A stretch of 64,000 bases of DNA from Candidatus Eiseniibacteriota bacterium (GTDB lineage: Bacteria; Joyebacterota; Joyebacteria; Joyebacterales; Joyebacteraceae): positions 13,650-77,649 of the forward strand of contig JBDRIO010000029.1 in NCBI GenBank assembly GCA_043815815.1. The letters run 5' to 3'. Below are positions 22,592-59,631 of this stretch, piece by piece (positions within the stretch are counted from its first letter, which is position 1; the number at the start of each line of letters is the position of its first letter). The position numbers and the translations under genes are program-made. The notes beneath the pieces are model-generated. The model saw only the letters and a list, made by a program, of their open reading frames with translations, ran no database searches and had not been told where the DNA came from.

Positions 22592-22593
22592 GG

Positions 22594-23226: not shown

Positions 23227-23269
23227 CGATTCTCCTTCCGGCTGAAACGTGCCGCTCGCGCCGTCCCGC

Positions 23270-24001: not shown

Positions 24002-24079
24002 CCCTGGGTCTCCGCGGAGCGAGTGGATCGTCTCGCGTCCCGGGCCGCGTCTCACGCAAGAGCCGAGCGCCCGATTCGC

Positions 24080-25537: not shown

Positions 25538-25745
25538 TGATGGGCTCCTGAAGGTCGGCTCTTCCGCCCCGTTCCCGGGCGCCGCAGCTGGGTCAGAGAA
25601 TTGTCGCACAGTTCCGGTGGGCAATCCAGAGGCGGCATCCTGCCGCCCGTGGATGACCGGACGCCCGATGTCTGCTAGAATCCCACACGTAACGAGCGCG
25701 CGGCAGGGGAAGCGCGCGCTCCCAACCTCCGCAGGGGAGTCACAC

Positions 25746-42891: not shown

Positions 42892-43159
42892 ACCTCCATA
42901 CCAGCGGGTCAGCGGACCTTGTTGTCCTGTGTTCCGTCCTCCTCTGTTGGTCTTAGACACCCGGCGCGGCCCCGGCGTTTCATCGCTGGAACTCGCGCCC
43001 TTTCCTTGACGATTCGTGACCCATTGCTCTACAATCGTCTTGGGGAGTACCGTGGCGCCGGTGGTTGACACCTGTTCAGGTCTGTTTCCGCCGATGCCGC
43101 GAGAGTCCCCGCTTGCTTGCATGGAGCCGTCCTGCCCGCCATCGCGCCGGAGAACCGAC

Positions 43160-43471
43160 ATGGCCGACAAGGTCCGCAGCACTCCCCGAAGCGCCTCGCC
43201 GAAGTATTGGAGGAAGCCGCTCGACGCCGACAAGATCAAGGTGCCGCACGGCGAACTCCACATACTGGTCGAACGCTGCAAGGGGTGCCAGTTCTGTGTC
43301 GAGTACTGCCCGAGGGACGTCCTCGACATGTCAGAGGACTTCAACCACAAGGGTTATCATTACCCCATCGCCGGGAACGAGAACGGCTGCGTGAACTGCC
43401 GGCTGTGCGAAATGCTCTGCCCGGAGTTCGCCATCTTTTGCCTCGAGGTGGAGGAGGAGGGTAGCGGATGA
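43160..43471 (+). CDS. korD: 2-oxoacid:ferredoxin oxidoreductase delta subunit (2x[4Fe-4S] ferredoxin)
   Basis: CKGCQFCVEYCP and CVNCRLCEMLCP motifs. Stop overlaps the alpha-subunit start (ATGA). Confidence 0.8.
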   Translation: MADKVRSTPRSASPKYWRKPLDADKIKVPHGELHILVERCKGCQFCVEYCPRDVLDMSEDFNHKGYHYPIAGNENGCVNCRLCEMLCPEFAIFCLEVEEEGSG

Positions 43472-44628
43472 GGACGGCTGATCCCAGGGGGGTCTTGACG
43501 GGCGAGCACTACCTCGACGGCGACCACGCGGCGGCGGAAGGCGCGCTCGCCGCCGGCTGTCGCTTCTTCGCAGGCTACCCCATCACACCTTCCACTGAAG
43601 TCGCAGAGAGGATCGCGGCCAGGTTCCCCCGAGTAGGGGGACTTTTCGTGCAGATGGAGGACGAGCTGGCTTCGATGGCGGCGATCCTGGGCGGCGCCTG
43701 GGCCGGCGCCAAGTCGATGACGGTGACGTCGGGTCCGGGGTTCTCGCTCATGATGGAGAACCTGGGGCTGGGGATCATGATGGAGGTCCCGACGGTGATC
43801 GTTAACGTGCAGCGCGGCGGTCCGTCGACCGGTCTTCCGACGCTTCCAGGGCAGGCGGACATGATGCAAGCGCGGTGGGGTTCGCACGGCGACTACGAGA
43901 TCATCGCCGTCTCTCCAAGTTCGCCGCAGGAGGCGTTCGACCACACGATCATGGCGTTCAACTTCGCCGAGAAGTACCGCGTTCCCACGCTCGTAATGAT
44001 GGACGAGTGCGTGGGACACATGACCGAGAAGGTCGTCATCCCCGAGGCGGAGGACATCGAGATCGTCCCCCGCAAGTGGTACGAGGGGAAGAAGGGCGAT
44101 TACCTGCCGTACAAGGCCGACGACGACATGATCCCCTGGATGGTGAAGGCCGGGGACGGGCACAGGTTCCACACGACCGGACTCACGCACGACGAGAGGG
44201 GTTATCCGGTCATGACCGCCGAGTGCCAGGAGGAGTGCGTCGGTCGACTCGTCAACAAGATCCGATCGAGGGTCGACGAGATCGTCGTCCTCGAGGAAGA
44301 GGGGATCGACGGCGCCGACGTGGTCGTCGTGTCGTACGGCATCACGGCCCGGGTCTCGATACCCGCGGTCGAGAAGGCCAGGGCGGACGGCGTCAAGGTG
44401 GGGAGCCTCCGGCTCGTGACGGTGTGGCCGTTCCCGGAGAACCGCATCCGCGAGCTCGCCGGGAAGGTGAAGTCCTTCGTGATCCCGGAGATCAACTACG
44501 GCCAGATCTACTACGAGCTCGAGCGCTGCGCCGGCGGGAAGGCAAGGACCATCCTCGTACCGCACGGCGGCGGGTGGGTGCACGACGAGAAAGACATCTA
44601 CGACGCCATCAAGGAGGGGGCGAAATGA
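43468..44628 (+). CDS. korA: 2-oxoacid:ferredoxin oxidoreductase alpha subunit
   Basis: POR/KOR alpha N-terminal domain: GAxxAGCRFFAGYPITPSTEV, MEDELASMAAILGGAWAG, GPGFSLMMENLG. Confidence 0.9.
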   Translation: MRTADPRGVLTGEHYLDGDHAAAEGALAAGCRFFAGYPITPSTEVAERIAARFPRVGGLFVQMEDELASMAAILGGAWAGAKSMTVTSGPGFSLMMENLGLGIMMEVPTVIVNVQRGGPSTGLPTLPGQADMMQARWGSHGDYEIIAVSPSSPQEAFDHTIMAFNFAEKYRVPTLVMMDECVGHMTEKVVIPEAEDIEIVPRKWYEGKKGDYLPYKADDDMIPWMVKAGDGHRFHTTGLTHDERGYPVMTAECQEECVGRLVNKIRSRVDEIVVLEEEGIDGADVVVVSYGITARVSIPAVEKARADGVKVGSLRLVTVWPFPENRIRELAGKVKSFVIPEINYGQIYYELERCAGGKARTILVPHGGGWVHDEKDIYDAIKEGAK

Positions 44629-45503
44629 AAACCAGGACCCCTGTCGCTCCCGGCCCGCCGCACCCGATGGAAGAACTGCTGCGGATGGACCGCATCCCGC
44701 ACATCTGGTGTCCGACCTGCGGGCTGGGCACGGTCGTCACGGCGTTCGCGGCGGCCTTGGAGAAGCTCGAGATGTCGCTCGATGACGTCGTCGTCGTGTC
44801 CGGCATCGGTTGCACCGGCCGCGTCGCGGGGTACGTCAAGATCGATTCATTCCACACGACCCACGGTCGCGCGATACCCTTCGCGACAGGTATTCATCTC
44901 ACCAACCCGAAGCTCAAGGTCGTCGTCATAAGCGGCGACGGGGACCTCATCTCCATCGGAGGGAACCACTTCATTCACGCGGCGCGCAGGAACGTCGACA
45001 TCACCGTCATATGCGTCAACAACTTCATCTACGCGATGACGGGAGGGCAGGTTGCGCCCACGACGCCGCTGACGGCGAACGCCTCCACGATGCCGTACGG
45101 GAACTTCGAGCGTCCCTTCAACATCCCGTATCTCGCTGAGTCATCGGGCGCGGTCTACGTGGCACGGTGGTCGGCCCTTCACGTGCGGCGACTCACGGCC
45201 GCGATGGCCGAGGCCGTGCAGAAGCCCGGCTTCTCTGTCGTCGAGGTGATCAGTCCCTGCTCCACGCTGTACTCCCGGCGCAACAGACTTGGGACAGGCC
45301 TGGACCTCATGAGGTTCTATCACGACAATTGCGTCATCAAGCACGGCGCCGACACGCGCGGCCTGGACATCGGCTTCCAGGAGGAGATCACCGTCGGCAA
45401 GTTCGTTGATATCGAGCGTCCGACGTACGTGGACGCGATGAACACGTGGTACGGAGAGGTCTTCGGGGACGACTACGAACTCTACGAGGGGTCGGCCAAG
45501 TGA
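44625..45503 (+). CDS. korB: 2-oxoacid:ferredoxin oxidoreductase beta subunit (TPP-binding)
   Basis: WCPTCGLGT, SGIGCTGR, GDGDLISIGGNHFIHAARRNVDITVICVNNFIYAMTGGQ TPP-binding fold. Confidence 0.9.
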   Translation: MKTRTPVAPGPPHPMEELLRMDRIPHIWCPTCGLGTVVTAFAAALEKLEMSLDDVVVVSGIGCTGRVAGYVKIDSFHTTHGRAIPFATGIHLTNPKLKVVVISGDGDLISIGGNHFIHAARRNVDITVICVNNFIYAMTGGQVAPTTPLTANASTMPYGNFERPFNIPYLAESSGAVYVARWSALHVRRLTAAMAEAVQKPGFSVVEVISPCSTLYSRRNRLGTGLDLMRFYHDNCVIKHGADTRGLDIGFQEEITVGKFVDIERPTYVDAMNTWYGEVFGDDYELYEGSAK

Positions 45504-46498
45504 ACGAGATAAGGATCTCCGGATTCGGCGGACAGGGCGTGATCAGATGCGGCTACATCGTGGGCAAGACGGCCGCCATCTTCGACAACAAGCACGCTAC
45601 GTTGACGCAGAGCTTCGGCCCCGAGGCCAGAGGCAGCGCGTGCAGCGCGCAGATCATCGTGGACGACGTTCCGATCCGATACCCGTACCTCACGAAGCCG
45701 GACACGGTGGTCGCGATGTCGCAGGAGGCGTTCGACAAGTTCGGTTCCGACATCACCCCGGGCGGAACGCTGATGATCGACGACGACCTCGTCAAGCCCG
45801 AGAGTCCTCCGAAGGGCTGCAAGGTCTACGCGATCCCGGCAACGAGGATAGCCGAGGGTCTGGGCAACAGGATCGCGGCGAACATCGTGATGCTCGGCTT
45901 CTTCACCGCCGTCACCGACATCATCTCCGTGGAGGCCGCGCGGGACGCCCTCCCGAGTTCGGTGCCTTCCCGCTTCATCGAGCTCAACGAGAAGGCCTTC
46001 GAGGAAGGCTACAGGTTCGGCTCCGAGCTTCTGGGCAAGGAACCCGTGCCGCCGCCGGCCGAGCGCTCCTCGAAGGGCGGCGAGTACAGGGCGTCCAAGG
46101 TCACGACGGCCAAGGCCGGCCGTCGGGCCACGACGCTCGCGCGGGTGAACGTGATGGACGGGGACGCGAGGAAGGGCGCCGCCGGGAAGAGCGCCGCGAA
46201 GTCGGCCGCAAAGGAAGCTGCAGGGGCGGCAATCCCTTCGACCGCGAAGAGGGTCGGGAAGAGGGCGTCCTCGGCGAAGCCCGCGAAGAGGGCCGGGAAG
46301 ACCGCGGCGAAGAAGAAGGCCGGAAAGAGGGCGTCCGCGGCAAAGAAGAAGGCCGGAAAGAGGGCGTCCGCGGCAAAGCCCGGGAAGAAGGCGCCCGCGA
46401 AGAAGGCCGGGAAGACCGCGGCCAGGAAGAAGGCCAAGTCCCCGGCGCGCAAACCTGCCAGGAAGACCGGCAAGAAGAAGTCCCCCGCTAGGAAGTGA
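45500..46498 (+). CDS. korC: 2-oxoacid:ferredoxin oxidoreductase gamma subunit with ~140-aa Lys/Ala-rich histone-H1-like C-terminal tail
   Basis: GTG start overlapping korB stop. Gamma-subunit core [24 protein letters not shown]...[11 protein letters not shown]. Tail ...[12 protein letters not shown]...[62 protein letters not shown]. Confidence 0.8.
46309..46374 (+). repeat. Perfect 33-bp tandem duplication inside the korC tail-coding region
   Basis: gaagaaggccggaaagagggcgtccgcggcaaa x2, encoding [11 protein letters not shown] twice. Confidence 0.8.
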
Positions 46499-46519: not shown

Positions 46520-49500
46520 GATGGACAGGGGCGTTCTCGTCATCGGAGGCGGCATAGCAGGCATTCAGGCCGCCCTCGATCTGGCGGACGCGCAGTTCAA
46601 GGTCTATCTCGTCGAACGCGAACCGTCGATCGGCGGGAAGATGGCCCAGCTCGACAAGACGTTCCCGAGCATGGACTGCGCCATCTGAATACTCGGTCCC
46701 AAGATGATGGATGTCGGTCGGCATCCGAACATCGAGCTCTGGACCAACAGCGAGGTTGTTAAGGTCAAGGGCAAGGCCGGGGATTTCAAGGTCAGCGTGC
46801 TCCGCAGAGCGCGGTGCGTCGACGTCGACGAGTGCACCGCGTGCGGGGAGTGCGCCAAGTCGTGCCCCATTGCCGTGCCCAACGAGTTCGACCTGGGATT
46901 GGGCACCCGCAAGGCCATCTACCAGCCGTTCCCTCAGGCGGTGCCGTCCGCCTACATCCGCGACATCGAAACCTGTCTTGGGCACTTCCCGCTGGCCTGC
47001 GGAAGGTGCGCCAAGGCCTGCGAGAAGGGGTGCATCGACTACGACGAGCAGGACGTCGTGGAGGACGTAGCCGTGGGGTCGATCGTCGTGACCACGGGCT
47101 TCGATTTCTACGACCCGGGCGAGGCGAGCGAGTACGGCTACAAGCGCTTCCACAACGTCGTGTCGAGCCTCGAACTCGAGAGGCTCCTCTCCGCGAGCGG
47201 ACCCACGAGGGGCTTCCTCACGCGCTTCACGGATGGCGAGTCCCCCAAGAGGATCGCCTTCATCCAGTGCGTCGGCTCCAGGTGCGTGAAGCGTGACATC
47301 CTCTACTGCAGCCGCATCTGCTGCATGAACGCCGTCAAGGACGCCCTCCTGATCGAGGAGCTCTTCCCGGGCGCAGAGCTGCTCATCTTCAACATCGACG
47401 TGCGCGCCTTCGGGAAGGGCTTCGAGGCCTTCTACCGCCGGTCGCAGGGCAACGCTCAGCTCCGCTATGTGAAGGGCAAGCCCTCCAAGGTGTCCGAGGA
47501 CCCGGACACCGGCCATCTCTTGCTTCACTACGAAGACTCGGTGACCGGCACGATCGAGCACTCCGAGGTCGACATGGTCGTGCTCTCGTCCGCGCTCGTG
47601 CCCTCCGAGGGGACCGCCGGGCTCGCCGAGGTGCTGGGAGTGGGCGTCGCTTCCGACGGGTACATAGAGAGTCGCGACGCCTCGGCCTACCCCCTCGACA
47701 CGACGCGCCCGGGCGTGTACGTGGCAGGTTGTGCGGCCGGGCCCAAGGACATCACCGATTCCGTGGCGGAGGCTTCGGGCGCCGCCGCGCTTGCCGCGTC
47801 GCACGTGCTCAAACACAAGCTCGAAGACACGAAAGTGGAGGTCGAGCAGAGAGACGTCAGCGGTCCTCCGCGCGTTGGGGTCTTCGTCTGTCACTGCGGC
47901 ATCAACATCGGGGGAGTGGTCGACGTCTCCAAGCTGTCCGAGTACGCCGGCACGCTGCCCGACGTGGTCTTCGCCGAGCATCTCCTCTTCGCCTGCGCGG
48001 AGAGCACGCAGAGACAGATACAGGAGCGTGTCGCCGAGCACGACCTGAACAGGGTCGTCGTCGCCGCGTGCACGCCGAGGACGCACGAGCCCGTTTTCAG
48101 GCAGGCGGTGGCCGCGGTCGGCCTGAACCCGTATCTCGTTGAGATGGTCAACATCCGCGACCAGTGCTCGTGGGTCCACGCCAAGGAGCCGGTGGCGGCC
48201 ACCGAGAAGTCGCGCGACCTCGTTCGCATGGCCGTGGCCCGTTCGCGACTCCTCACGCCCCTGTCCGAGAAGGAGCTGGACGTCGGTCACGAGGTGCTCG
48301 TCGTCGGAGGCGGCATCGCGGGCATCGAGACCGCCATAGACCTCTCTCGGAGAGGGTTCTCCGTGCACCTCATCGAGCGCGAGGACGCGCTCGGCGGGCG
48401 GGTGGCAGGCCTGGCGGGAACGTATCCGAGCGGGCGGAGCGGCAGGTCGCTGGTCGACGAGAAGGTCGAGGCTCTGACCGCGACCAAGGTCGACGTCAGG
48501 ACGGGCACCGTCCTCAAGAGCGTCACCGGCTTTGTCGGGAACTTCGAGGCGACGCTGGCGCCGGCGGGCGGCGGCCCGACCGAAACACTGTCCGTCGGCG
48601 CCATCGTCCTCGCCATCGGCGCCGACCTCTACGAGCCCGGACCCGACGACTTCGGCGCCGGTGTCGTGCCGGGCGTCATCCCCAACACCGAGGTCGAAGG
48701 TCTCCTCGAGGGGAAGGGCGCTCCCAAGCTCGGAGGCAAGAAGGTCGAGACGGCCGTCTTCATCCAGTGCGTCGGGTCGCGAGGGGAGAAGGGGAATCCG
48801 GAGTGCTCCCGCTACTGCTGCCAGTCCGCCATCCGTCAGGCGATCGAGCTTCGGAAGCGCGGCGTCGACGTCGTCGTTCTGCACCGTGACGTCCGCGTCT
48901 ACGGCCGCGGGGCCGAGGAGATGTACCGGCGCGCCCGGGGGATGGGCGTGACGTTCCTGGGCTACGACCCGGCCGAGCCGCCCGTCGTCGACCGCGACGG
49001 CGACTCGCTGCGCGTGAGCCTCGCCGTGCCGTCGCGCAACATGACGATCGAGATACCCGCCGACGTCGTGGCCCTCTCGCTGGGCATGGTGCCCAGGAAG
49101 CACGACACGACGGCGATGCAGGAGATGCTCAAGGTCCCGATCGGGAGCGACGGCTTTCTCCTCGAGCGGCACCCCAAGTTCGGCCCCGTCGAGACGAACA
49201 CCGAGGGCGTCTTCCTGTGTGGATGCAGCCAGGCGCCCAAGGACATCGGTGACTCGATATCCCAGGCGTCGGCGGTCGCCTCGAAGATCGGCGCGCTCCT
49301 CGCTCGCGACACGATCACGCTGGAACCGATCGTCTCGGTCGTGAGCGACAGGCTCTGCCGCGCATGCTCGGAGTGCGTGATCGTCTGTGAGTTCAACGCG
49401 ATAGAGATAGGCGAGCTTCCGGACGGGCGGCGCGTGGCGATCGTGAACGAGGCGCTCTGCAAGGGGTGCGGGACGTGCGCCGTGGCATGTCCTAGCGGGG

Positions 49501-49622
49501 CCATCTCGATACGGCACTTCACCGACGAGATGATCGAGACGATGATGGAGGCCTACCTGAGGCCGACCGCTGAGCACGGGTCCGAAGCGTGGCCGGAGAC
49601 GGACGTTGGCGAAACGGGCTGA
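46520..49622 (+). CDS. hdrA: HdrA-like flavoprotein, selenocysteine-containing (in-frame TGA near 46685-46687), double-HdrA fusion with C-terminal 2x[4Fe-4S] ferredoxin
   Basis: N-terminus [22 protein letters not shown]...[10 protein letters not shown]-[TGA][13 protein letters not shown] matches the HdrA DCSMC(I/L)LSPK site, where the second Cys is Sec in known selenoprotein HdrAs. Then a Cys-rich FAD domain, an inserted Fe-S domain ([14 protein letters not shown]...[10 protein letters not shown]), a second FAD domain ([17 protein letters not shown]), then [12 protein letters not shown] / [12 protein letters not shown]. The ORF track only shows the portion after the TGA (46704..49622). Confidence 0.75.
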
Positions 49623-50187
49623 CAGCACGGAGACCGGGCGTGCCTCCGCGAAGGGGACGCGTGCCGGGAGCGCCTCGGGCGGCGCCGGGTCCTCGAACTC
49701 CGGGCGCGGCGCGTTCGAGCCGAGGGTCGTCGCCTTCGCGTGCAACTGGTGCAGCTACCCGGCAGCGGACGCCGCAGGCATCAACAAGATGCAGTATCCG
49801 CCGAACGCGCGGATCATACGCGTCATGTGCGCCGGGCGCATCCACCCCGCGTTCGTTCTGAAGGCTCTCGAGCTCGGCGCAGATGGCGTCCTCGTGTCCG
49901 GCTGCCACTTCGCCGACTGCCACTATCTGTTCGGCGCCAAGCGGGCGGCAGAGCAGTTCGAGAAGACGGCGGAGCTTGTCAGGCTGCTCGGCCTTCCGAA
50001 GGAGAGGGTCCGCTTCGAGCAGATATCCGCCGCCGAGGCGCCGGAGTTCGTGCGCGTGATGCACGAGTTCGTCGAGGACCTGAAGCGACTCGGCCCGAGC
50101 CAGCTCGGCGGGCCCGTTGACGGCGGGAGCCGACCGGGCGACCGCGGGATCGACCTGCCCGGAGTTGTGGGAGAGGAGCGCACGTAG
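49606..50187 (+). CDS. mvhD: MvhD-like protein (methyl-viologen-reducing hydrogenase delta subunit family, [2Fe-2S])
   Basis: [67 protein letters not shown]. Confidence 0.8.
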   Translation: MAKRADSTETGRASAKGTRAGSASGGAGSSNSGRGAFEPRVVAFACNWCSYPAADAAGINKMQYPPNARIIRVMCAGRIHPAFVLKALELGADGVLVSGCHFADCHYLFGAKRAAEQFEKTAELVRLLGLPKERVRFEQISAAEAPEFVRVMHEFVEDLKRLGPSQLGGPVDGGSRPGDRGIDLPGVVGEERT

Positions 50188-50189
50188 CC

Positions 50190-51338
50190 ATGAAGGACCT
50201 GACGGAGGCGATCAGGGTCTCACGCGCGCAGTTCTGCTACGAGTGCGGGAAGTGCACGGGCGTCTGCCCGGTCGCGCGGTACGACAGCGGATTCTCACCC
50301 AGGTCGCTGCTCGTGCGCGCTGTGCGCGGGGAGGAAGGGAAGCTCGTTCAGGACGTGAACGTCTGGTCGTGTCTGACGTGCGGGCTGTGCGACACCCGCT
50401 GCCCGGCGGGCATCGACTACGGGGTCCTGACCAAGGCCGTGAGGGCGGTCGTGCGGCGCGAGGGCGGCGAGGGGACCTGCACTCACGGAGGGGCGGTCCA
50501 GTCGCTCACGAAGATAATGACGAGGCCCAAACTCGAGCAGGACAGGCTCGGCTGGGTCGACGGGACGATGAAGACAAAGGCCAGGGGAGACACGGTCTTC
50601 TTCGTCGGGTGCGCGCCGTACTTCGAGGTCCTCTTCGAAGAGACGGGCGCCAGGTCGCTCGAGACCTCGCGGGCGTCGGTCCGTCTCCTGAACGCGGCCG
50701 GCGTCGTGCCCGCGCTCCTTCCGAACGAGCGCTGCTGCGGCCACGACCTCCTCTGGAACGGCGACGTCGAGAACTTCCGGATGCTCGCGAGGCAGAATCT
50801 CAAGATGCTCGAGGAGGCGGGCGCCAAGCGCGTCGTCGTCGCGTGTCCCGAGGGGTACGCCACACTGAGGAACGATTACCCCGCTCACTTCGGCGAGCTT
50901 CCGTTCGAGGTCGTTCACCTCACGGAGTTCCTCGCGGAGTCAATCGAGGACGGAAGGCTCACGTTCGGAAGTAACGGCGAGGAGACCGTCGTCACCTACC
51001 AGGACCCGTGCAGGCTGGGGCGCCACCTCGGCGTCTACGACGCTCCGAGGCGAGTCATCGAGGCGCTGCCTGGCGTCACGCTGGTCGAGATGGCCCACTC
51101 CCGAGAGAGGGCCATATGCTGCGGGGTGGGGGGATTCCAGAACTGCACGTCGTTCAGCAAGATGATTCAGGCCGCCCGCCTCCGCGAGGCGAAGGCGACG
51201 GGCGCCGACACGCTCGTCACGGCCTGCCCCAAGTGTGAGATACATCTCGGATGCGCGCTCAAGGACCCGGTGCTCGAGGACGAGCTCGGGCTGCGCATCG
51301 TGGACGTAGCGGCCCTGGCCGCGTCGCGTCTCGCGTAG
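50190..51338 (+). CDS. HdrD-like fused HdrC/HdrB protein (2x[4Fe-4S] plus two CCG domains)
   Basis: CYECGKCTGVCP and CLTCGLCDTRCP, then CCG motifs NERCCGHD and AICCGVGG...CPKC. Confidence 0.75.
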   Translation: MKDLTEAIRVSRAQFCYECGKCTGVCPVARYDSGFSPRSLLVRAVRGEEGKLVQDVNVWSCLTCGLCDTRCPAGIDYGVLTKAVRAVVRREGGEGTCTHGGAVQSLTKIMTRPKLEQDRLGWVDGTMKTKARGDTVFFVGCAPYFEVLFEETGARSLETSRASVRLLNAAGVVPALLPNERCCGHDLLWNGDVENFRMLARQNLKMLEEAGAKRVVVACPEGYATLRNDYPAHFGELPFEVVHLTEFLAESIEDGRLTFGSNGEETVVTYQDPCRLGRHLGVYDAPRRVIEALPGVTLVEMAHSRERAICCGVGGFQNCTSFSKMIQAARLREAKATGADTLVTACPKCEIHLGCALKDPVLEDELGLRIVDVAALAASRLA

Positions 51339-51392
51339 CGGAGCGTGTCTCGTGCTGTGAGTCGTACCTCGCGTAGTGAACGGAGGAGCGTG

Positions 51393-53831
51393 ATGGCAAC
51401 GAGGGATGACGGTGACGGGAAGCTCCGGGTAGGCGTGTTCGTCTGCCAGTGCGGTCTGAACATCGCCGGAACCGTGGACTGCGCGGCTGTCGCCGAGTTC
51501 GCTGAAGGCTTGGACGACGTCGCCATCGTGTACAACAACAAGTACACGTGTTCCGAGCCCGGACAACTCGAGCTTCAGAAGGCCATCGAAGAGCACGACC
51601 TGAACCGAGTGGTCGTCGCGTCGTGCTCGCCGCGCATGCACGAGCCCACGTTCAGGGCGGCACTCGAGGGGGCGGGGCTGAATCCCTACCTACTGGAGAT
51701 GGCCAACCTCCGCGAGCACTGCAGCTGGGTGCACATGGGGGAGCCCGACGCAGCAACGGAGAAGGCCAAGGATCTCGTGAAGATGGCCGTCGCCAGAGCC
51801 CGCGCGCTCGCGGCTCAGACGGAGATGGTCGTCCCCATCACGCAGACGGCCCTGGTCGTCGGAGGAGGCGTAGCAGGAATCCAGGCTTCGCTCGACCTCG
51901 CCGACGCCGGTTATCAGGTCTACCTGGTCGAGAAGGAACCCTCCATCGGTGGGATCATGGCTCAGATCGACAAGACCTTTCCCACCATGGACTGCTCCAT
52001 ATGAATTCTCGGCCCCAAGATGGCGGATGTCGGTCGGCATCCGAAGATCGAGCTCCTGGCCTACAGCGAAGTTGAGGACGTCAAAGGGTACGTGGGCAAC
52101 TTCACGGTCACGGTCCGCAAGAAGGCGCGGTACGTGGACGCGAGCGAGTGCACGGCGTGCGGTGACTGTAAGGACGTCTGTCCGGTGACCGCCCCGGACG
52201 AGTTCGAGATAGGCCTGGCCACGAGGAAGGCGATCTACCAGCCGTTCCCGCAGGCCGTTCCGTCGGCGTACGTTCTGAACATCGACGAGTGCCTCGGAAA
52301 CAACCCCATCGCGTGCGGGAAGTGCCTCGAGGTCTGCGACAAGAAGTGCATCGACTACGACGATGAGGACGAGCTGGTTCAGATCGAAGTGGGAACGGTC
52401 ATCGTCTGCGTCGGCATGGACGTCTACGACCCGACGATCATGGACGAGTTCGGGTACACGAGGTTCGAGAACGTCATCACGTCGATGGAGTTCGAGCGCC
52501 TCATCAACTCCGGAGGTCCGACCGAAGGCCACCTGGTCAAGCTCACCGACGGAGAGCAGCCTGGTACGGTGGCGTTCATCCAGTGCGTGGGCTCGAGGGA
52601 CGCGACCCGCGGCAACCCGTACTGCAGCAACTTCTGCTGCATGAACACGGTGAAGGATTGCCTCCTCATCAAGGACCACTACCCCGGCGTCGACATCAAG
52701 GTCTTCTACATCGACATCCGCGCCTTCGGCAAGGGGTTCGAGGACCTCTTCCAGAGGAGCAAGGAGGCGGGGACCCAGTACATCCGCGGCATCCCCGGCG
52801 AGATCGAGGAGGACCCCGAGACGAAGGGTTTGAGGCTTTTCGTCGAGAACACGACCGACGGCGGGGTCGAGCGCCACGACGTCGACATGGTCGTGCTCTC
52901 GGTCGGCGCCATTCCCAGGAAAGACAGCGACGTCATCCAGCGGCTCCTGACGCTCCAGCGGAGCCAGGACGGGTTCTTCCTCGAGGCGCACCCGAAGCTC
53001 AAGCCGGTCGACGCGGCCACGCAAGGCGTCTTCTTCGCCGGCTGTGCCGAGAGCCCGAAGGACATCAAGGACTCCGTGACGCAGGCGAGCGCGGCCGTCG
53101 CGCGCGCCAACCGCCTCATGATGCAGGGGAAGGTGAAGGTCGAGGCCATCACGTCGACCGTGATCCCGGAGCTCTGCAAGTCGTGCGGCATATGCGTCAA
53201 GGTCTGTCCGTATCACGCGATCTCGTGTGACACGAAGGCCAAAGCGGCCGCGGTCGTCGTCGAGGCCGCGTGCGCAGGCTGCGGAGCCTGCAGCGCGGAG
53301 TGTCCGTTCGGCGCCATAACGATGAAGCACTTCACCGACGACCAGATCGAGGCGCAGATCGACGCGATGCTCGACACCGATCCACAGGACAAGGTGCTAG
53401 CGTTCGCGTGCAACTGGTGCTCGTACTCGGGCGGGGACCTCGCGGGGACGAACAGGCTCCAGTACCCGGCGAACGTCCGGCTCATCAGGACGATGTGCTC
53501 CGGGCGCGTCGACAAGAAGTTCGTGCAGAGGGCGTTCGCCAGAGGCGCACCGGTCGTGCTCGTGTCCGGTTGCCACTTCGCGGACTGCCACTACATCAAC
53601 GCCGTGCACTGGACGCAGCGGAGGGTCGAGAAGCTCTGGGACGAGCTGGAGAAGAAGGGCGTCCGTCCCGAGCGGCTGCAGCTCGAGTGGATCTCGGCGG
53701 CCGAGGGTCAGAAGTTCGCGACCGTCATGCGCGCCATGGAGGAACTGCGGCAGACGGTCACGCCCGCTGAGATCGAGAAATCCAGGAAGGCATATGCCAG
53801 TGCCCTCGAGCCCACCGAGGTCACCGCCTAG
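51393..53831 (+). CDS. hdrA: HdrA-like flavoprotein, selenocysteine-containing (in-frame TGA 52002-52004), fused C-terminally to an MvhD domain
   Basis: GGAGGAG RBS; N-terminal Fe-S domain [14 protein letters not shown]...[10 protein letters not shown]; FAD domain ...[10 protein letters not shown]-[TGA][13 protein letters not shown]...; ferredoxin [12 protein letters not shown] / [12 protein letters not shown]; C-terminal Mvh[18 protein letters not shown]...GCHFADCHY. The ORF track splits it into 51345..52004 and 52020..53831, consistent with one TGA-interrupted frame. Confidence 0.8.
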
Positions 53832-53844
53832 AGGAGCGCCGCCC

Positions 53845-53979
53845 ATGGCCGACCAGGCCAGGTTCGTCTGTCTGCGCTGCGGAGCCGAGTTCCTCCTGCC
53901 CTACACGCCCGGAGTGACGGAGGAGCGCACGTGCCCCTCCTGTTCCAGCAACAGCGTCAGGCGCAAGAAGGACAGCTAG
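53845..53979 (+). CDS. FmdB-family zinc-ribbon small protein (44 aa)
   Basis: AGAGGAG RBS. MADQARFVCLRCGAEFLLPYTPGVTEERTCPSCSS (CxxC...CxxC). Confidence 0.45.
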   Translation: MADQARFVCLRCGAEFLLPYTPGVTEERTCPSCSSNSVRRKKDS

Positions 53980-54116: not shown

Positions 54117-57100
54117 ATGCGCAAGCCCTTCGTCATTCTCGAAGACGAGGCCAGGACGCTCGCGAACTACCACGTTCGCTACGTCGACGCTGCCCGCCGG
54201 CACCACGAATCCCTCGTGGAGAAGCTCGAAGCCAAGGGTCTGTACGACAGGGCCCACCTCTGGCAGCTCGCGGCCGAGCCGGCGACGGAGTTCCGCATCG
54301 TCGAGCAGGCGGCCGACTCGTTCGAGGAGAAGCTCGCCTTCCTCGGCTGCTACTACTGCCTGCAGCTTCTCCGAATGAACCTCGACGCCGTCGACTCGCT
54401 GCGGCTGAGCCTCATCTCGCCGGTCGACAGGACCGGCACCGAGCGCGACTTCATGCTCGGAATGGGCGCCGGGTTCCGGGCGCTGTCCGGCGCCTACATG
54501 GAGAGACTACTCTCTCTCTTCATCGCCGACCGCGAGACGCCGGCGTACGTCCTGATCGGCGTCGGCACGCGCGCCGACCAGGACGACATCGACGTCGGCG
54601 TGATCGACGACGGCGGCGAGGGCGGGGAGGCGCTCGATACGGCCATAGCGCGCATGAGCGTTCAGATGCTCAAGTACGCCACGAGCCTCCACTTCCACCT
54701 CTCGGAACACGTGGGCGAGCGCAGCTACAGCGCGACCATCCCCGAGTACAGGAGCACGCTCGACAAAGGGGTAAGGGACTTCGTCATCGTCAATGAGCTG
54801 GTCGGAAGCGCGCCCATCCTGGGTGACACGAGGCTCTTCGCGGAGTTTCAGAACGAGGTCGTGTCCCGCTACTACCACCGGCCCGGCGAGGACCCGAAGT
54901 GGCACGTCGGATACCTGCGCGGACTGCTCGGCGAGATCCAGTCTCTCATCGGACGCCCCCTCGGCCGTGACCACATCAATCCCAAGGACGACGGTCTCCG
55001 CATGACGAAGGGGCTCCTCGCGGTCCTCCGGACGATCCACGGGGTCGAGGAGGTCAACGCCTGGAGGATCATCGACTCGCTTCGCAGGGTCTCGCCGGAG
55101 GACGCCGGGCTCTACGACGACCTCGAGCGGTCGCTGAGCTTCCTCGAGGTCTTCCGCTCCGTCTATCAGCTCCTGGTGGCCCAGGACGAGGAGATCTACC
55201 TCGACGACGCGGTGATGCAGGCGAACCTGGCCCGCGTCGGGGAGGTCATGGGCTACAGGACGGTGGGTCTCATCGGTCCCGAGACGCACCTTCTCGTCGA
55301 GTACTACGAGCACGTGGGGCACGTGCGGAGGATCGTGAGCGAACTGACCGAGCGCTGCACGCAGCACTTGAGGGAGACGACCGTCTTCGCCGACATGGTT
55401 CTCCCCGAGTATCGTGGCAACACGGCGGTCGACTTCGCGGAGCGCAGCGCGTTCTTCCGCGGAACGACGTTCTGGCAGGACCTCCTCGAGCTCCTGGAGC
55501 AGGACGACTGCAGGCTCCTCTGCAGATACCTTGATGACCTGAACGAGCTCCCGCCGGGGGCGCGCGCGAAGGTCGTCGACGCCCTGAGCGCGTGCGCCGA
55601 GTACGCTCCCGGCACCGTGATGACGCTCATCGTCATCCTGGCCCGCAACCCGCACTGCGAGGGAGCGCTCGAGCTCTTCGAGGAGCTGGAAGCGGCATTC
55701 AGGTCGAGGCTGACGAGCGTGCCGTACGCCGCGCTCCCCGCCATCGAGCTCTTCTACCGGCGTCCGAGGCTCGTCAACCGCTATCTCATGAGCATCGGTA
55801 CGGCGGCCACGCTCGAGTTCGCCGACCTGCTCCGCCGGGAGCTGTGGGACCCCGACGTCGCGTTCTGGTGCGGCAAACTCGTTCTGCTCGCTGACCTGCA
55901 CGGGCGCGCGAGCAGGTACTTCAGGCAGTACCTGGATCGTGCGGGGGAGAAATATCCGTCGTGCCTGACGCTCCTGGATGACACGGCGTCGCTGCGGGAC
56001 ATGTCGCGCGGCGTCCTGGCGGGCGTCGAGCGCAAGCCGTCCTCACGAGAGAAGATGGAGAGGCTCGGCGACTTCTACGACCTGGAGTTTCTGCGGATAG
56101 GCTTGAAGACGCTGAACGGAGTTCCGGCGGCGCGCACAGACGGCGAGTTCACCGCCGCCGCCGACACCTACATTCAGGATCTCTTCGACCTGTGCAAGCG
56201 CGAGGTCGACGAGGCGGTCCACTTCCGCGTGGCCACGCACGACCTCCTCGCCGTCTACGCCACGGGAGGGCTTGGACGAGAGCAGGCGTACGACGACGAC
56301 TTCGACCTGCTCGTGCTCGTCAACACGAACCACGAGGACGTGCGCGCCTACGCGGACGCGATCGTGGCCAAGATGAACGCGGAGATCATCAAGCGCGGGA
56401 CTCTGCCCCACTACAGGCTCGCCGACCACATCGGGCACTACGTGGCCACCCTGGACGAGTTGCAGAGCGTGCTCTCGACCGAGCGGTCGGACACCTTCGT
56501 CGACCAGTCGCAGGTTCTAGAGGCGCGCATGATCGTGGGGACGAGCCGGTTCGAGAACGAGTTCCGCAGGAAGATCGTGGGGCGCCATGTCTTCGACGAG
56601 CGGTGTCGGTACGTGAGCAGGATGCGTGAGGAGATCGAGTCGCGTCACCGCGATGCTCGGGCCATGGGGCGCGAGCTCTCCAGCGTCAAGGACGGCGTGG
56701 GGAGTCTGCGCGACATCATCATGCTTCTGCTCATGTACAAGGCGGCCTACAGGCTGCATCGTCCGGTGAACGCGCAGCTTCTCACGGACCTGGCGAGGCT
56801 CGAGCCGACTCATCAGCGCGAGTTCCGCTTCCTGAGCGGGGCGCTCGAGTTCTTCAAGAACCTGCGCAACGCCTATCGCATGTCCGTCGGGGCGGAGGAC
56901 AAGCTCAGGCGCGAGTACTTCCACGTCGTGGCGCAGTCGATGGGGCTCTCGCTGGGTGACGACGAGGAGGCCCGGGAACTCCTGATGCGCGCGTATCGCG
57001 GATGCACGGTCCAGGTTGGCGAGGTCGTCGCGGCGCTGGCCCTCGAGCTCGAGCGGAGCTGCCTGGAACTCTCGGTTGAATCTGCGGACGCGTCGCCTCG

Positions 57101-57410
57101 TCCGTTGAGCGCCATGCCGCCCGGGGTCGGCCCCACGTGGCGGGGAGTGCCGAGGCGCGACGTTCCGTGGTACCCCACGATCGACGAAGGCGCATGCGAG
57201 GGCTGCGGAGCGTGTGAGGACCTCTGTTCATTCGGCGTGCTCGAACGGACGCGCGACGCCTCGACGGTTCGCGTTCGCCGCCGCTACGCGTGCGTCGTCG
57301 GATGCGTTCTCTGTTCCTCGGTCTGCCGGAGCAACGCGATCTCGTTCCCGGGGCTGTCTGTGCTGGAAGGGCTTTCGCAGAGCGGCGGGGCGGACGGCGG
57401 CGGTTCGTAG
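54117..57410 (+). CDS. GlnE-like protein with two nucleotidyltransferase (Pol-beta superfamily) modules and a fused C-terminal 2x[4Fe-4S] ferredoxin domain
   Basis: NTase motifs YVLIGVGTRADQDDIDVGVI and AVYATGGLGREQAYDDDFDLLVLV (compare GlnE GKLGGRELNYSSDLDLVFL). Each is followed by a GlnE-type helical domain. C-terminus CEGCGACEDLC...CVVGCVLCSSVC. 1097 aa. Confidence 0.65.
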   Translation: MRKPFVILEDEARTLANYHVRYVDAARRHHESLVEKLEAKGLYDRAHLWQLAAEPATEFRIVEQAADSFEEKLAFLGCYYCLQLLRMNLDAVDSLRLSLISPVDRTGTERDFMLGMGAGFRALSGAYMERLLSLFIADRETPAYVLIGVGTRADQDDIDVGVIDDGGEGGEALDTAIARMSVQMLKYATSLHFHLSEHVGERSYSATIPEYRSTLDKGVRDFVIVNELVGSAPILGDTRLFAEFQNEVVSRYYHRPGEDPKWHVGYLRGLLGEIQSLIGRPLGRDHINPKDDGLRMTKGLLAVLRTIHGVEEVNAWRIIDSLRRVSPEDAGLYDDLERSLSFLEVFRSVYQLLVAQDEEIYLDDAVMQANLARVGEVMGYRTVGLIGPETHLLVEYYEHVGHVRRIVSELTERCTQHLRETTVFADMVLPEYRGNTAVDFAERSAFFRGTTFWQDLLELLEQDDCRLLCRYLDDLNELPPGARAKVVDALSACAEYAPGTVMTLIVILARNPHCEGALELFEELEAAFRSRLTSVPYAALPAIELFYRRPRLVNRYLMSIGTAATLEFADLLRRELWDPDVAFWCGKLVLLADLHGRASRYFRQYLDRAGEKYPSCLTLLDDTASLRDMSRGVLAGVERKPSSREKMERLGDFYDLEFLRIGLKTLNGVPAARTDGEFTAAADTYIQDLFDLCKREVDEAVHFRVATHDLLAVYATGGLGREQAYDDDFDLLVLVNTNHEDVRAYADAIVAKMNAEIIKRGTLPHYRLADHIGHYVATLDELQSVLSTERSDTFVDQSQVLEARMIVGTSRFENEFRRKIVGRHVFDERCRYVSRMREEIESRHRDARAMGRELSSVKDGVGSLRDIIMLLLMYKAAYRLHRPVNAQLLTDLARLEPTHQREFRFLSGALEFFKNLRNAYRMSVGAEDKLRREYFHVVAQSMGLSLGDDEEARELLMRAYRGCTVQVGEVVAALALELERSCLELSVESADASPRPLSAMPPGVGPTWRGVPRRDVPWYPTIDEGACEGCGACEDLCSFGVLERTRDASTVRVRRRYACVVGCVLCSSVCRSNAISFPGLSVLEGLSQSGGADGGGS

Positions 57411-57476: not shown

Positions 57477-58358
57477 TCAGGACGCGGGAGCACCGAGGCG
57501 GGCGACGATGTCGTCCGCCTTCACCTTGTGCAGGTCGAGTCCCAGCTCCTCACGGGAGAACCCCTGCGCGAGACCGAGCAGTTGGAAGTAGTAGATGATG
57601 GGGATCTCGAACTTCGTCCCCTTCTTCCGCCCGACCGTTATCTGGCCCAGGTCGAACGACGAGAAGCACGTCGGACAGATGAGCCCCATGCAGTCGGCGC
57701 CCGAGTCGGCTATCGACGTGAAGATGCTGTAGACCATCTCGACAGGCATGTCGTCGTCGAGGCATCCCTTCCCGCAACACAGGAGTTCCTCGGGGTGCGA
57801 CACGGGCGTCGCGCCGACGGCCGTCACCAGCTCCTCGAGGATGGACGGGTAGTCCGCGTCATCGACGTGCATGATCTGGGACGGCTTCAGGAGATGGCAT
57901 CCGTAGTGGATGGCCACCTTCACACCATCGAGAGGACGAGTGACCGACTCCCTGACGGCGTCCATCCCGAGTTCGTCGCGGATGAGAACGACCGCGTGTT
58001 CGACCTTCGCGGTCCCCTTGTACGTCTTGCCGACCTTCGCCAGCCTCTTGTTGATCTTCTTGCGGAGGCTCTCGTCCTCGGCGAGCAGGAAGCGCGCCTC
58101 CTTGAGCGTGGCCGTGCATCCGCTGCACAGCGTCACCAGATCGACCCCCGCTTCCTCCGCAAGAGCGAGGTTCCTCGCGGCGATCGTGAGCCATCCCAGC
58201 GCGTCCTTCGCCTTGAAGTAGATGGGGTCGGGACAACACGTGAAGCCGTCGATGTCGACGAGCTCGAACCCGAGCCTGGGCATCGTGAGACGGAAGGCCG
58301 CCTCCATCTGGGGGTACTTGATCGGGATCATGCAGCCGAGGAAAGGCGCGAGCTTCAC
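57477..58358 (-). CDS. hdrB: Heterodisulfide reductase subunit B (two CCG domains)
   Basis: GTG start with GGAGG RBS (VKLAPFLGCMIPIKYP). CCG motifs FTCCPDP...CSGC and LLCCGKGC...CPTC. The ORF track's longer 58928 start overlaps hdrC. Confidence 0.85.
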   Translation of the reverse strand: MKLAPFLGCMIPIKYPQMEAAFRLTMPRLGFELVDIDGFTCCPDPIYFKAKDALGWLTIAARNLALAEEAGVDLVTLCSGCTATLKEARFLLAEDESLRKKINKRLAKVGKTYKGTAKVEHAVVLIRDELGMDAVRESVTRPLDGVKVAIHYGCHLLKPSQIMHVDDADYPSILEELVTAVGATPVSHPEELLCCGKGCLDDDMPVEMVYSIFTSIADSGADCMGLICPTCFSSFDLGQITVGRKKGTKFEIPIIYYFQLLGLAQGFSREELGLDLHKVKADDIVARLGAPAS

Positions 58359-58867
58359 TTGTCGGTCGCCTCCAGGAGTTTTCTCATCTCGTCGACCGGG
58401 ACGTCCTTGAGGGGCTTGAGTCCCAGCCTCTCGCGCGTCTTGTGAACGACGGGCGTCACGACTCCGGCGACGCCCGTCTTCAGGATGTTCTTCGTGAGCA
58501 CGTTGACCGCGTCCGGCGCCACGCCCTTGCGGTCGGCGAGGTTCTTGAGCGCCACGATTACCTCGATAGGGCGAACGTCCTGGGGGCATCGCTCGTAGCA
58601 GCTGTAGCAGTTCGTGCACAGCCAGATGGGCGAATCGGGGGAGAGGAGCGCGTCGCCCCGGCCCAGCAGTACGTCGAGCAGGATGAGTCTGGGGTTGAAA
58701 CGCTCGGAGTAGCGGGCCGCCGGGCACTGCGCGACGCAGGCGCCGCACTGGTAGCAGTAGTTGTGGTGGTCCCCGCCCAGCACCCCGTCGAGTTCGCGTC
58801 GGAGGTCGAAGCTGAGTTCCACGTGGAGGCTCTTGTCGGCCCGGCTCTTGTCGTCTTTGTCCGGCAC
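58355..58867 (-). CDS. hdrC: Heterodisulfide reductase subunit C (2x[4Fe-4S])
   Basis: CYQCGACVAQCP and CTNCYSCYERCP. 4-nt overlap with the hdrB start. Confidence 0.85.
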   Translation of the reverse strand: MPDKDDKSRADKSLHVELSFDLRRELDGVLGGDHHNYCYQCGACVAQCPAARYSERFNPRLILLDVLLGRGDALLSPDSPIWLCTNCYSCYERCPQDVRPIEVIVALKNLADRKGVAPDAVNVLTKNILKTGVAGVVTPVVHKTRERLGLKPLKDVPVDEMRKLLEATDK

Positions 58868-59013: not shown

Positions 59014-59631
59014 TCACGCCTTCCACGGTTCGACCGAGGCCCGTCCGTTCGTGATTCCGGCCAGGGCCTCCGCGAACGCACCGGCGCGCTCGGCGGGCAG
59101 CCTCAGGTGAAACGTCGCGTCGGTGGCGTAGGTCTCGTCCAGCACCTCCGCCTCGAACGCCGGAAGCGCGTTCTTGAGCTGCGTCACCGCGTTGTACGGA
59201 ACCACGGCCCGCATCTCCACCGTCTCTACGAACTCGACGAGCGGCAGCCCTTCGAGGGCCAGCTTGACTCCGCCGCCGTACGCCCGCACGAGACCGCCCT
59301 TCCCGAGCTTCGTCCCTCCGTAGTAGCGCGTCACGACGGCCGCGACGTCTCCCACGCCGCTCCCGAGGAGGACGTTCAGCATGGGTCTCCCGGCGGTGCT
59401 GTGGGGCTCCCCGTCGTCGGTCATGCCGACGCGGCTCGTGTCGCCCGGCGGGCCCACGACGTACGCCCAGCAGTTGTGCGTGGCGTCCCGGAACTCCTCG
59501 GACACGCCGGCGATGAACTCGCGCGCCTCCTCGACGGTCGCGGCTCTCCCCAGCGTGGTGACGAAGCGGCTCCGCTCGCGCGTCTCCTCGACGCGGTGAA
59601 CGGTAGCCGGTGTCGGATAGCGTCCCTTCAC
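59014..59631 (-). CDS. yigZ: YigZ / IMPACT-family protein (UPF0029)
   Basis: GTG start with AGGAGGAG RBS. ...KSRFVTTLGRAATVEEAREFIAGVSEEFRDATHNCWAYVVG.... The ORF track's longer 60402 start is spurious and overlaps znuB. Confidence 0.8.
   Translation of the reverse strand: MKGRYPTPATVHRVEETRERSRFVTTLGRAATVEEAREFIAGVSEEFRDATHNCWAYVVGPPGDTSRVGMTDDGEPHSTAGRPMLNVLLGSGVGDVAAVVTRYYGGTKLGKGGLVRAYGGGVKLALEGLPLVEFVETVEMRAVVPYNAVTQLKNALPAFEAEVLDETYATDATFHLRLPAERAGAFAEALAGITNGRASVEPWKA

Follow-up and report, generated by a model that had tools for sequence, protein, structure and literature searches.

A family of tandem GlnE-fold nucleotidyltransferases encoded beside kor and hdr genes, with a predicted ferredoxin tail in an Eisenbacteria member

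To our knowledge, all characterised enzymes of the GlnE fold (GlnE, GlnD and DrrA) work as covalent switches by nucleotidylylating a tyrosine of a protein, and we know of no covalent nucleotidylylation switch for the 2-oxoacid:ferredoxin oxidoreductases (OFORs) or the Hdr-type electron-bifurcating complexes, which govern how anaerobes manage ferredoxin and 2-oxoglutarate. The protein described here is encoded in a 64-kb window, the whole stretch of Candidatus Eiseniibacteriota DNA that was analysed. It shares its two-module architecture and size with GlnE, the glutamine synthetase adenylyltransferase/adenylyl-removing enzyme of E. coli (PDB 1V4A and 3K7D), but is only about 16% identical to the GlnE structures; PF03710 gave no match at E<=1, and no GlnE model was among the best NCBIfam matches. 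Unlike GlnE, its family sits in kor/hdr operons, with no glutamine synthetase (GS) or PII gene found in the window or the inspected loci, and some members bear Fe-S tails. The closest sequence match of the C-terminal module was instead GlnD, the PII uridylyltransferase/uridylyl-removing enzyme, with which it shares a similar GG..RE....D.D motif and the combination of an NTase with a PF08335 helical domain. GlnD has an HD (uridylyl-removing) domain and two C-terminal ACT domains, whereas a Pfam scan of the window protein gave neither HD nor ACT matches, and a second NTase module stands where GlnD has HD. The AMPylation domain of the Legionella protein DrrA/SidM (PDB 6YX5 and 3NKU) differs from our family in being one module only, joined to GEF and P4M domains in a secreted effector, and has no sequence-level relationship to it. 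DUF294-type NTases (CBS/cNMP-binding, NTase and DUF294_C domains) belong to the same clan, likewise pairing an NTase with a helical substrate-binding domain; in them an uncharacterised NTase is joined to signal-input domains, and JGI named one member of our family (P0120) as DUF294-type. However, these proteins have a single NTase module each where the window protein has two, and DUF294, CBS and cNMP profiles gave no match to it in the Pfam scan.

Table 1. Features of the nucleotidyltransferase gene and its neighbours in the window
Feature	Position	Strand	Basis or remark
Complete gene, 1097-aa tandem GlnE-fold nucleotidyltransferase with C-terminal ferredoxin domain	54117..57410	+	single ORF
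N-terminal NTase and HEPN-like helical module, aa 46-419	54252..55373	+	
NTase motif 1, GVGTRADQDDIDVG, aa 148-161 (G150, D157, D159)	54558..54599	+	invariant in A1
Central all-helical linker region, aa 420-623	55374..55985	+	AF2 secondary structure, pLDDT about 85-93
C-terminal NTase and GlnD_UR_UTase helical module, aa 624-983	55986..57065	+	PF08335, GlnD models, GlnE 1v4a
NTase motif 2, GGLGREQAYDDDFD, aa 717-730 (G717, G718, R721, D728, D730)	56265..56306	+	invariant in A1
Linker, aa 984-1019, low-confidence, probably flexible	57066..57173	+	pLDDT 29-37
Ferredoxin tail, 8 Cys	57174..57356	+	Cx2Cx2Cx3C, aa 1027-1037; Cx3Cx2Cx3C, aa 1059-1070
korD-korA-korB-korG, 2-oxoacid:ferredoxin oxidoreductase	43157..46498	+	closest to 2-oxoglutarate type; gamma is the 'type 1' paralogue
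Large hdrA paralogue, in-frame TGA at 46687-46689	46522..49622	+	
mvhD	49606..50187	+	PF02662, E 1e-49
Fused HdrC/HdrB-like protein (Fer4 and 2x CCG)	50190..51338	+	
hdrA-mvhD fusion gene, in-frame TGA at 52002-52004 (probable selenocysteine)	51345..53831	+	
44-aa CxxC...CxxC zinc-ribbon gene, conserved cluster member	53845..53979	+	PF09723, E 4e-5
hdrB, convergent with the NTase gene	57477..58358	-	TIGR03288, 301 bits
hdrC	58355..58867	-	TIGR03290, 104 bits

The gene was confirmed as real, its product being 100% identical to a 'hypothetical protein' of a Candidatus Eisenbacteria MAG (P0001). A preliminary description had placed it within a Kor/Hdr/Mvh cluster, and the kor, hdr and mvhD genes around it were indeed identified by profile (Table 1); homologues of the small zinc-ribbon gene come after hdrA-mvhD in many loci. 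Rfam gave no RNA element in the window. An MNT/HEPN or anti-phage defence NTase was considered and rejected, given that PADLOC returned no match to MNT/HEPN toxin-antitoxin or anti-phage defence models and that the context is a conserved metabolic operon.

The protein carries two tandem Pol-beta NTase and helical modules in one polypeptide, and both active sites look intact, which bears out the GlnE-like architecture read from the sequence earlier. Profile searches upheld that reading in part: PF08335 (aa 836-974, E 1.7e-13, Pfam scan of the full protein) and the N-terminal region of GlnD matched, whereas GlnE-specific profiles did not. The NCBIfam GlnD N-terminal models covered aa 680-988 with E about 1e-16, a segment that corresponds to region 23-302 of TIGR01693, and the GlnD model scored 59 bits against a cut-off of 519, far under the family threshold. 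A profile search against PDB sequences gave a weak match to the helical domain of GlnE (1v4a, E 6.5e-4); a TyrRS match in the same search was discarded as spurious. The N-terminal half matched nothing in the Pfam/NCBIfam scan of the full protein and was identified by hhalign together with structure prediction, and the two modules proved to be an internal duplication (hhalign E 9.4e-23); for aa 420-623 the search for a family match was negative. Because no GlnE-specific profile matches and the sequence-level matches are PF08335, the GlnD N-terminal region and, weakly, the GlnE helical domain, we regard the protein, on sequence grounds, as a member of a separate family of ~985 aa and not as a GlnE orthologue.

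At least 191 species-level genomes carry this family; all are MAGs, they span more than 10 phyla, mostly uncultured, and the hosts include the candidate phyla Zixibacteria, KSB1 and WOR-3, and also Acidobacteriota. We found no description of the family in the searchable literature, nor a characterised precedent for a GlnE-ferredoxin fusion, in agreement with the earlier remark that none was known. The features of the GlnE/GlnD/DrrA subgroup of the Pol-beta superfamily are all present, namely an NTase sheet with a Gly-rich motif, a DxD pair and a third acidic residue, and, C-terminal to it, a HEPN-like helical domain. Motif 1 is kept in 172 of the 173 full-length members and its third acidic residue, E197, in 169/173; motif 2 is kept in 171-172/173, and the GlnE/GlnD-type K858..G862.R865-D866 motif is conserved too. 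The DxD pairs of both modules, the third acidic residue and the Gly motif persist in 162-172/173 members, at identities as low as about 23%, and both NTase sites appear catalytically competent.

The C-terminal tail is a genuine one, as first described: it has the two Cys motifs of a 2x[4Fe-4S] bacterial-type ferredoxin domain and matches Pfam Fer4 (21.6 bits, cut-off 21.1), the dicluster models staying under their cut-offs, and it is predicted to bind two clusters. Cys 1027/1030/1033/1037 are canonical (CxxCxxCxxxC(P) type), while Cys 1059/1063/1066/1070 follow a Cx3Cx2Cx3C spacing with no Pro after them in the window protein; relatives have the Pro. The tail is ~50% identical to a separate downstream 175-aa ferredoxin gene product at three loci (L003, L008 and L013) and to P0263, and the linker (aa 984-1019) represents the deleted stop codon, the spacer and the N-terminal domain of the separate ferredoxin gene in L008 and L013. 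Judged by these sequences, the fusion is a derived trait of one narrow Eisenbacteria subclade, whose sister genomes keep a separate downstream ferredoxin gene. In another clade HdrC was fused independently, the tails of P0074, P0090 and P0094 being 32-43% identical to the window HdrC (E 1e-17 to 1e-27). About 95% of the family has no ferredoxin fusion or Fe-S domain, and a redox input is therefore not intrinsic to the family. The AF2 model gave no confident docking of the ferredoxin domain on an NTase site, an arrangement the preliminary description had raised, with pLDDT 30-60 for linker and tail. A role of the tail as a substitute for a missing Kor delta subunit was rejected, since korD is present at 43157-43471.

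Synteny was sampled at 81 non-redundant loci, with gamma adjacency scored in 66 and Kor and Hdr/MvhD in 30. A gamma-subunit gene lies upstream, on the same strand and within 1 kb, in 52/66 loci; at 29/30 loci Kor is no more than 8-10 kb away, and Hdr/MvhD is present at 22/30. Whereas hdrA/mvhD is frequent but dispensable, the kor operon is the partner that stays conserved from phylum to phylum. Of all neighbours korDABG is the most constant, and within it above all a separate 'type 2' gamma-subunit paralogue directly upstream. The gamma subunits encoded next to the NTase gene group as a paralogue clade of their own, also where they stand alone beside a different korDABG operon, and type-2 gamma persists next to the NTase gene even without type-2 korAB. 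Two distant relatives (23-25% identity) adjoin neither kor nor hdr, and the synteny therefore holds for the main clade only. Neighbouring genes commonly lie 6-20 nt apart or overlap; tight operon coupling of this kind, overlapping genes included, would also fit a stoichiometric subunit rather than a regulator. Some tyrosines are specific to type-2 gamma, such as Tyr42 in SQSYGPEARGG (Phe in type 1), and are a lead only; we left them out of the evidence, since an exchange of Tyr and Phe at position 42 may be frequent.

We favour, with a probability of roughly 45%, a reading in which the protein is a two-site protein nucleotidylyl-transferase/removase whose target is the Kor/Hdr machinery and whose Fe-S module serves as a tether or redox input. 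By analogy with the characterised enzymes of the fold, we infer that one module would modify a side chain of a protein, probably a tyrosine, with an NMP (AMP or UMP), and that the other would remove the nucleotide, as in GlnE, so dividing forward and reverse reactions between the modules. Because the family is linked by gene order to kor, hdr and mvhD genes in more than 10 phyla, the substrate or sensor is most likely a component of the Kor/HdrABC/MvhD machinery; the best target candidate would be the OFOR gamma subunit or the solo 'type 2' paralogue, although the window itself has no gene for the favoured candidate, type-2 gamma. In the window lineage a once-separate 2x[4Fe-4S] ferredoxin has been joined to the C-terminus through a probably flexible linker, and the tail would most likely tether the enzyme to the Hdr/Kor Fe-S chain or report its redox state. 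The redox-gated nucleotidylylation suggested at the outset would be a reasonable idea; glutamine synthetase, the other target then named, finds no support here.

An unlikely alternative, but the strongest, is that a Kor-Hdr supercomplex contains the protein as a stoichiometric subunit with no regulatory role, its NTase pockets merely binding a nucleotide (or CoA/acyl-CoA via a gamma-like partner) as an allosteric or structural ligand and its tail being a true electron-transfer module. The large size of the protein, its conserved central all-helical region, its tight coupling to korG through such short gaps or overlaps, and its fusions to HdrC and ferredoxin, both electron-wire modules, would all suit such a subunit. 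However, in the 173 sequences the full catalytic triads and Gly motifs of both modules are conserved almost without exception, which is difficult to account for in a protein that does no catalysis, and the great majority of members have no Fe-S domain to carry electrons. A shade less probable is a small-molecule or cofactor nucleotidyltransferase, acting for example on a CoA-like thiol or on a bacterial Hdr heterodisulfide substrate, with the solo gamma-like protein providing the CoA-binding site. The gamma subunit (domain III) is the CoA-binding domain in OFORs, which suits the conserved partnership with its paralogue, kept even where type-2 korAB is missing. Less probable again is a functional equivalent of GlnE that adenylylates and deadenylylates a GS encoded elsewhere and lies beside Kor since 2-oxoglutarate, which signals carbon status in nitrogen control, is a product or substrate of Kor. 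The two-module architecture and the size are those of GlnE, Kor here is closest to the 2-oxoglutarate type, and in some known organisms glnE lies apart from glnA; but the low identity to GlnE structures and the missing GlnE-specific profile match speak against it, glnA, glnB and amtB were not found in the 64-kb window or the inspected loci, and the fusion partners are Hdr-type Fe-S modules rather than nitrogen-sensing domains. Finally, an artefact of assembly chimerism or of a missed frameshift joining two genes is effectively refuted already: ferredoxin is a separate gene in sister genomes and GC3 is somewhat lower in the tail (0.80 vs 0.90), but the same in-frame fusion, at 76-83% identity, recurs in at least 6 assemblies that are independent of one another and differ in source, and the other two frames at the junction are closed or nonsensical.

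Returning to the two-site nucleotidylylation reading, kor/hdr adjacency across many uncultured phyla hints at a covalent on/off switch on anaerobic energy metabolism. With intact sites, kor/hdr wiring in at least 191 genomes and two Fe-S fusions, the family is therefore a concrete, testable candidate for such regulation. More speculatively, and with more doubt than belief, it may represent a new post-translational layer in which a two-site AMPylase/de-AMPylase (or UMPylase) switches an OFOR/HdrABC-MvhD electron-bifurcating supercomplex, the gamma paralogue being the target or a CoA-sensing adaptor (compare PII for GlnE) and the fused Fe-S module of some lineages allowing direct redox gating. 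If true, ferredoxin-dependent central metabolism would here be seen for the first time under covalent control by nucleotidylylation. Specific candidate interaction partners are suggested by the solo gamma paralogue and by the Fe-S fusions, and the family gives a starting point for working out what bacterial HdrABC-MvhD clusters without hydrogenase do.

The nucleotidyltransferase (NTase) gene of the window is a single uninterrupted ORF with an ATG start just after a Shine-Dalgarno-like GGGGGAG, and its GC3 of 0.90 is ordinary for genes of the window (66% GC). Its product is 100% identical to P0001, an entry annotated as 'hypothetical protein' from a Candidatus Eisenbacteria MAG. Both NTase motifs quoted in the preliminary description were found in the product, and the order of genes given there was confirmed, the cluster running from korDABG to the convergent hdrB/hdrC. 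An IMPACT/YigZ-family gene (UPF0029 and DUF1949) comes after hdrCB, a position conserved in Eisenbacteria-like loci (L003, L008, L013, L006, L014).

Features of the window
Feature	Position	Strand	Remark
Predicted secreted hydrolases with PF13860	865-40554		
MttB/corrinoid/methyltransferase cluster	21701-25828		
korD-korA-korB-korG	43157-46498		
korG ORF	45446-46498		
Repetitive tail of korG	~46040-46495		~150 aa
Large hdrA	46522-49622		in-frame TGA 46687-46689
mvhD	49606-50187		
Fused hdrC/B-like gene	50190-51338		
hdrA-mvhD	51345-53831		in-frame TGA 52002-52004
Zinc ribbon	53845-53979		44 aa
NTase gene	54117-57410	+	1097 aa
hdrB	57477-58358		convergent with NTase gene
hdrC	58355-58867		convergent with NTase gene
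IMPACT/YigZ-family gene	59014-59631	-	

Pfam detected only the GlnD_UR_UTase helical domain (PF08335, aa 836–974, E 1.7e-13) and a weak Fer4 in the tail, with no match in aa 1–680, and NCBIfam placed aa 680–988 on the NTase region at the N-terminus of GlnD models (E ~1e-16) at scores far under the cut-offs. In a profile–profile comparison of the two halves, built on a 43-sequence family alignment, aa 46–419 aligned with aa 624–983 (99.5% probability, E 9.4e-23) and DQDDIDVG superposed on YDDDFDLL; judged by their profiles, the two halves are homologous. The AlphaFold2 model was confident over aa 1–990 (mean pLDDT 84, pTM 0.72), and its only significant Foldseek matches in the PDB were the GlnE adenylylation domain (3K7D), the GlnE N-terminal domain (1V4A) and the Legionella AMPylase DrrA. 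Together, the internal homology and the structural matches identify a GlnE-type module in each half and bear out the GlnE-like architecture proposed earlier.

Conservation was counted over 173 full-length relatives with identities down to ~23%. The DxD pair was kept in 172 sequences in module 1 (D157, D159) and in 171–172 in module 2 (D728, D730), the third acidic residue in 169 (E197) and 162 (D/E770), and the glycine motifs in 168–172, while the GlnE/GlnD-type K..GG.RD motif of module 2 was essentially invariant. Because these residues are kept across the relatives, both sites look catalytic. A GlnE fold with two intact NTase sites is thus established, and the conserved active-site residues make it unlikely that the protein is a non-catalytic structural subunit.

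To survey the context, we searched the cluster proteins of the window by tblastn against 81 non-redundant loci carrying the NTase gene. A same-strand gamma-subunit (PF01558) gene lay within 1 kb upstream at 52 of the 66 loci with enough upstream sequence; where at least 8 kb was available on each side, Kor genes were present at 29/30 loci and Hdr/MvhD genes at 22/30, and hdrB/hdrC followed within 2.5 kb downstream at 15/56. Most frequently korD-A-B-G directly precedes the NTase gene, with korG-to-NTase gaps of just 6–20 nt or an overlap (e.g. L001, L016–L018, L067). The earlier proposal of a constant co-occurrence of the fusions with hdrA/mvhD must therefore be revised, the constant partner of the family being Kor with its gamma subunit and Hdr a frequent second one. 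Operon-level coupling of the NTase gene to 2-oxoacid:ferredoxin oxidoreductase (OFOR) gamma/Kor and Hdr is established, and since two very distant relatives (23–25% identity) lie in unrelated contexts, the association is limited to the main clade. A WOR-3 locus (L023, 9252–9983) carries an additional 243-aa ORF between korG and the NTase gene, which has no NCBIfam match but contains GALPLLIRGY…WDIDLLF, a motif reminiscent of a minimal nucleotidyltransferase; similar gaps of ~770 nt occur in Stahlbacteria and WOR-3 loci.

The gamma-subunit tree comprises two paralogue types, ~37–43% identical to each other, and the NTase-adjacent gamma is always type 2 (48–70% identity across phyla), either as the last gene of the kor operon or solo. 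In Zixibacteria and some Eisenbacteria the solo type-2 gamma (gamma') adjoins a type-1 korDABG operon; it stands directly upstream of the NTase gene at L005/L027 (9379–9930), L008 (~9338–9900) and many Zixibacteria loci. The SQSYGPEARGG loop has Tyr in type 2 and Phe in type 1. The subclade of the window has lost type-2 gamma from this position: only the zinc ribbon lies upstream in the window and L010, and type-1 korDABG is directly upstream in L006. For both Kor types the nearest OFORs are those of the 2-oxoglutarate type, with just the generic 2-oxoacid alpha model passing its cut-off. The korG of the window ends in a Lys/Ala/Gly-rich, histone-H1-like tail, shorter in L006, which could be read-through of a GC-rich spacer. 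The NTase might act on a small molecule or cofactor with gamma' as CoA-binding partner, a reading we consider rather improbable.

C-terminal extensions occur in only 7 of the 267 collected proteins and are of two unrelated kinds: a 2x[4Fe-4S] module in the window protein (Cys 1027/1030/1033/1037 and 1059/1063/1066/1070) and P0002–P0004, and an HdrC domain in P0074, P0090 and P0094, 32–43% identical to the HdrC of the window (E 1e-17 to 1e-27). The suspicion of a missed frameshift proved unfounded, the same in-frame fusion recurring at 76–83% identity in P0002–P0004 and in L006, L010 and L014, all from independent assemblies, and an assembly artefact is scarcely conceivable. In sister genomes (L003/L008/L013/L015/L052) the NTase core is 61–63% identical, the gene stops at ~aa 988, and a separate 175-aa gene follows ~70 nt later, its C-terminal half 50% identical to the window tail; fusion therefore deleted everything from the stop codon through the spacer to the end of that gene's N-terminal domain. 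The fusion of the ferredoxin tail is recent and specific to the lineage. The separate ferredoxin gene (L003 11038–11565, also L008 and L013) bears an extra ~90-aa N-terminal domain absent from the fused form of the window, and in P0260 this ferredoxin module is duplicated in tandem. That the NTase was fused twice, independently, to Fe-S modules of one cluster is established and constitutes classical 'Rosetta stone' evidence that the enzyme operates in physical contact with Hdr-type Fe-S machinery. Docking of the ferredoxin on an NTase active site, raised previously, permits no claim at pLDDT 30–60 for the linker (aa 990–1020) and tail. A tail substituting for Kor delta was rejected, as korD is present.

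In both hdrA paralogues of the window an in-frame TGA falls at a conserved HdrA motif and the frame runs on unchanged, which suggests that both contain selenocysteine. Homologues in other phyla (L001–L005) are split by gene callers at the same place, and no Rfam RNA element was matched. Elsewhere in the window, besides the MttB cluster, a FlgD Ig-like domain (PF13860) forms the C-terminus of many hydrolases predicted to be secreted and is probably a tag particular to the lineage, for sorting or anchoring; carriers include an esterase, an alpha-amylase, an M1 peptidase, endonuclease I, a GH53 enzyme and a beta-helix protein.

An exhaustive HMMER search recovered 129 clusters (50% identity) at E<=1e-30, nearly all full-length matches being 960–1010 aa long and colinear across both modules. 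When one genome was scanned for each GTDB species, 191 genomes proved to carry the family; the best 80 are MAGs without exception, from Eisenbacteria, Acidobacteriota, KSB1, WOR-3, Stahlbacteria, Zixibacteria, Gemmatimonadota, TA06, Krumholzibacteriota, Cloacimonadota, Calditrichota and others. The protein matches no GlnE-specific profile, identity to GlnE structures is ~16%, and a profile search of PDB sequences retrieves only the GlnE helical domain (E 6.5e-4); the family is separate and distinct from GlnE. A true glutamine synthetase (GS) adenylyltransferase is quite improbable, given the missing GlnE profile match, the absence of nitrogen genes nearby and fusion partners of the wrong kind. 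A defence or toxin–antitoxin role, prompted by the MNT/HEPN-like fold, was ruled out by context and a negative PADLOC scan. Source annotations read 'hypothetical protein' or give the generic name 'PII-uridylyltransferase/GS adenylyltransferase domain-containing protein', and no paper on the family or its kor/hdr link was found in the searchable literature. The fold and class of chemistry are already known; neither the family nor its operon context nor the Fe-S fusions appear to have been described.

GlnE acts on GS, GlnD on PII and DrrA on Rab1, in each case by nucleotidylylation of a protein tyrosine, and to our knowledge every characterised enzyme of this fold does so; in GlnE one module performs the forward and the other the reverse reaction. 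Structures of these types rank top among the matches of the NTase protein. The most economical model, to which we assign a probability of roughly 0.45, is by analogy a reversible switch, in which the protein would add AMP/UMP to, and remove it from, some Kor/Hdr component, with the Fe-S tail as tether or redox input. Type-2 gamma may be the target or, alternatively, an adaptor sensing CoA or acyl-CoA, as PII is for GlnE. The family is widespread among poorly understood anaerobes, the suggested regulation would be without precedent for OFOR or Hdr enzymes, and the family may shed light on the role of bacterial Hdr/Mvh clusters without hydrogenase.
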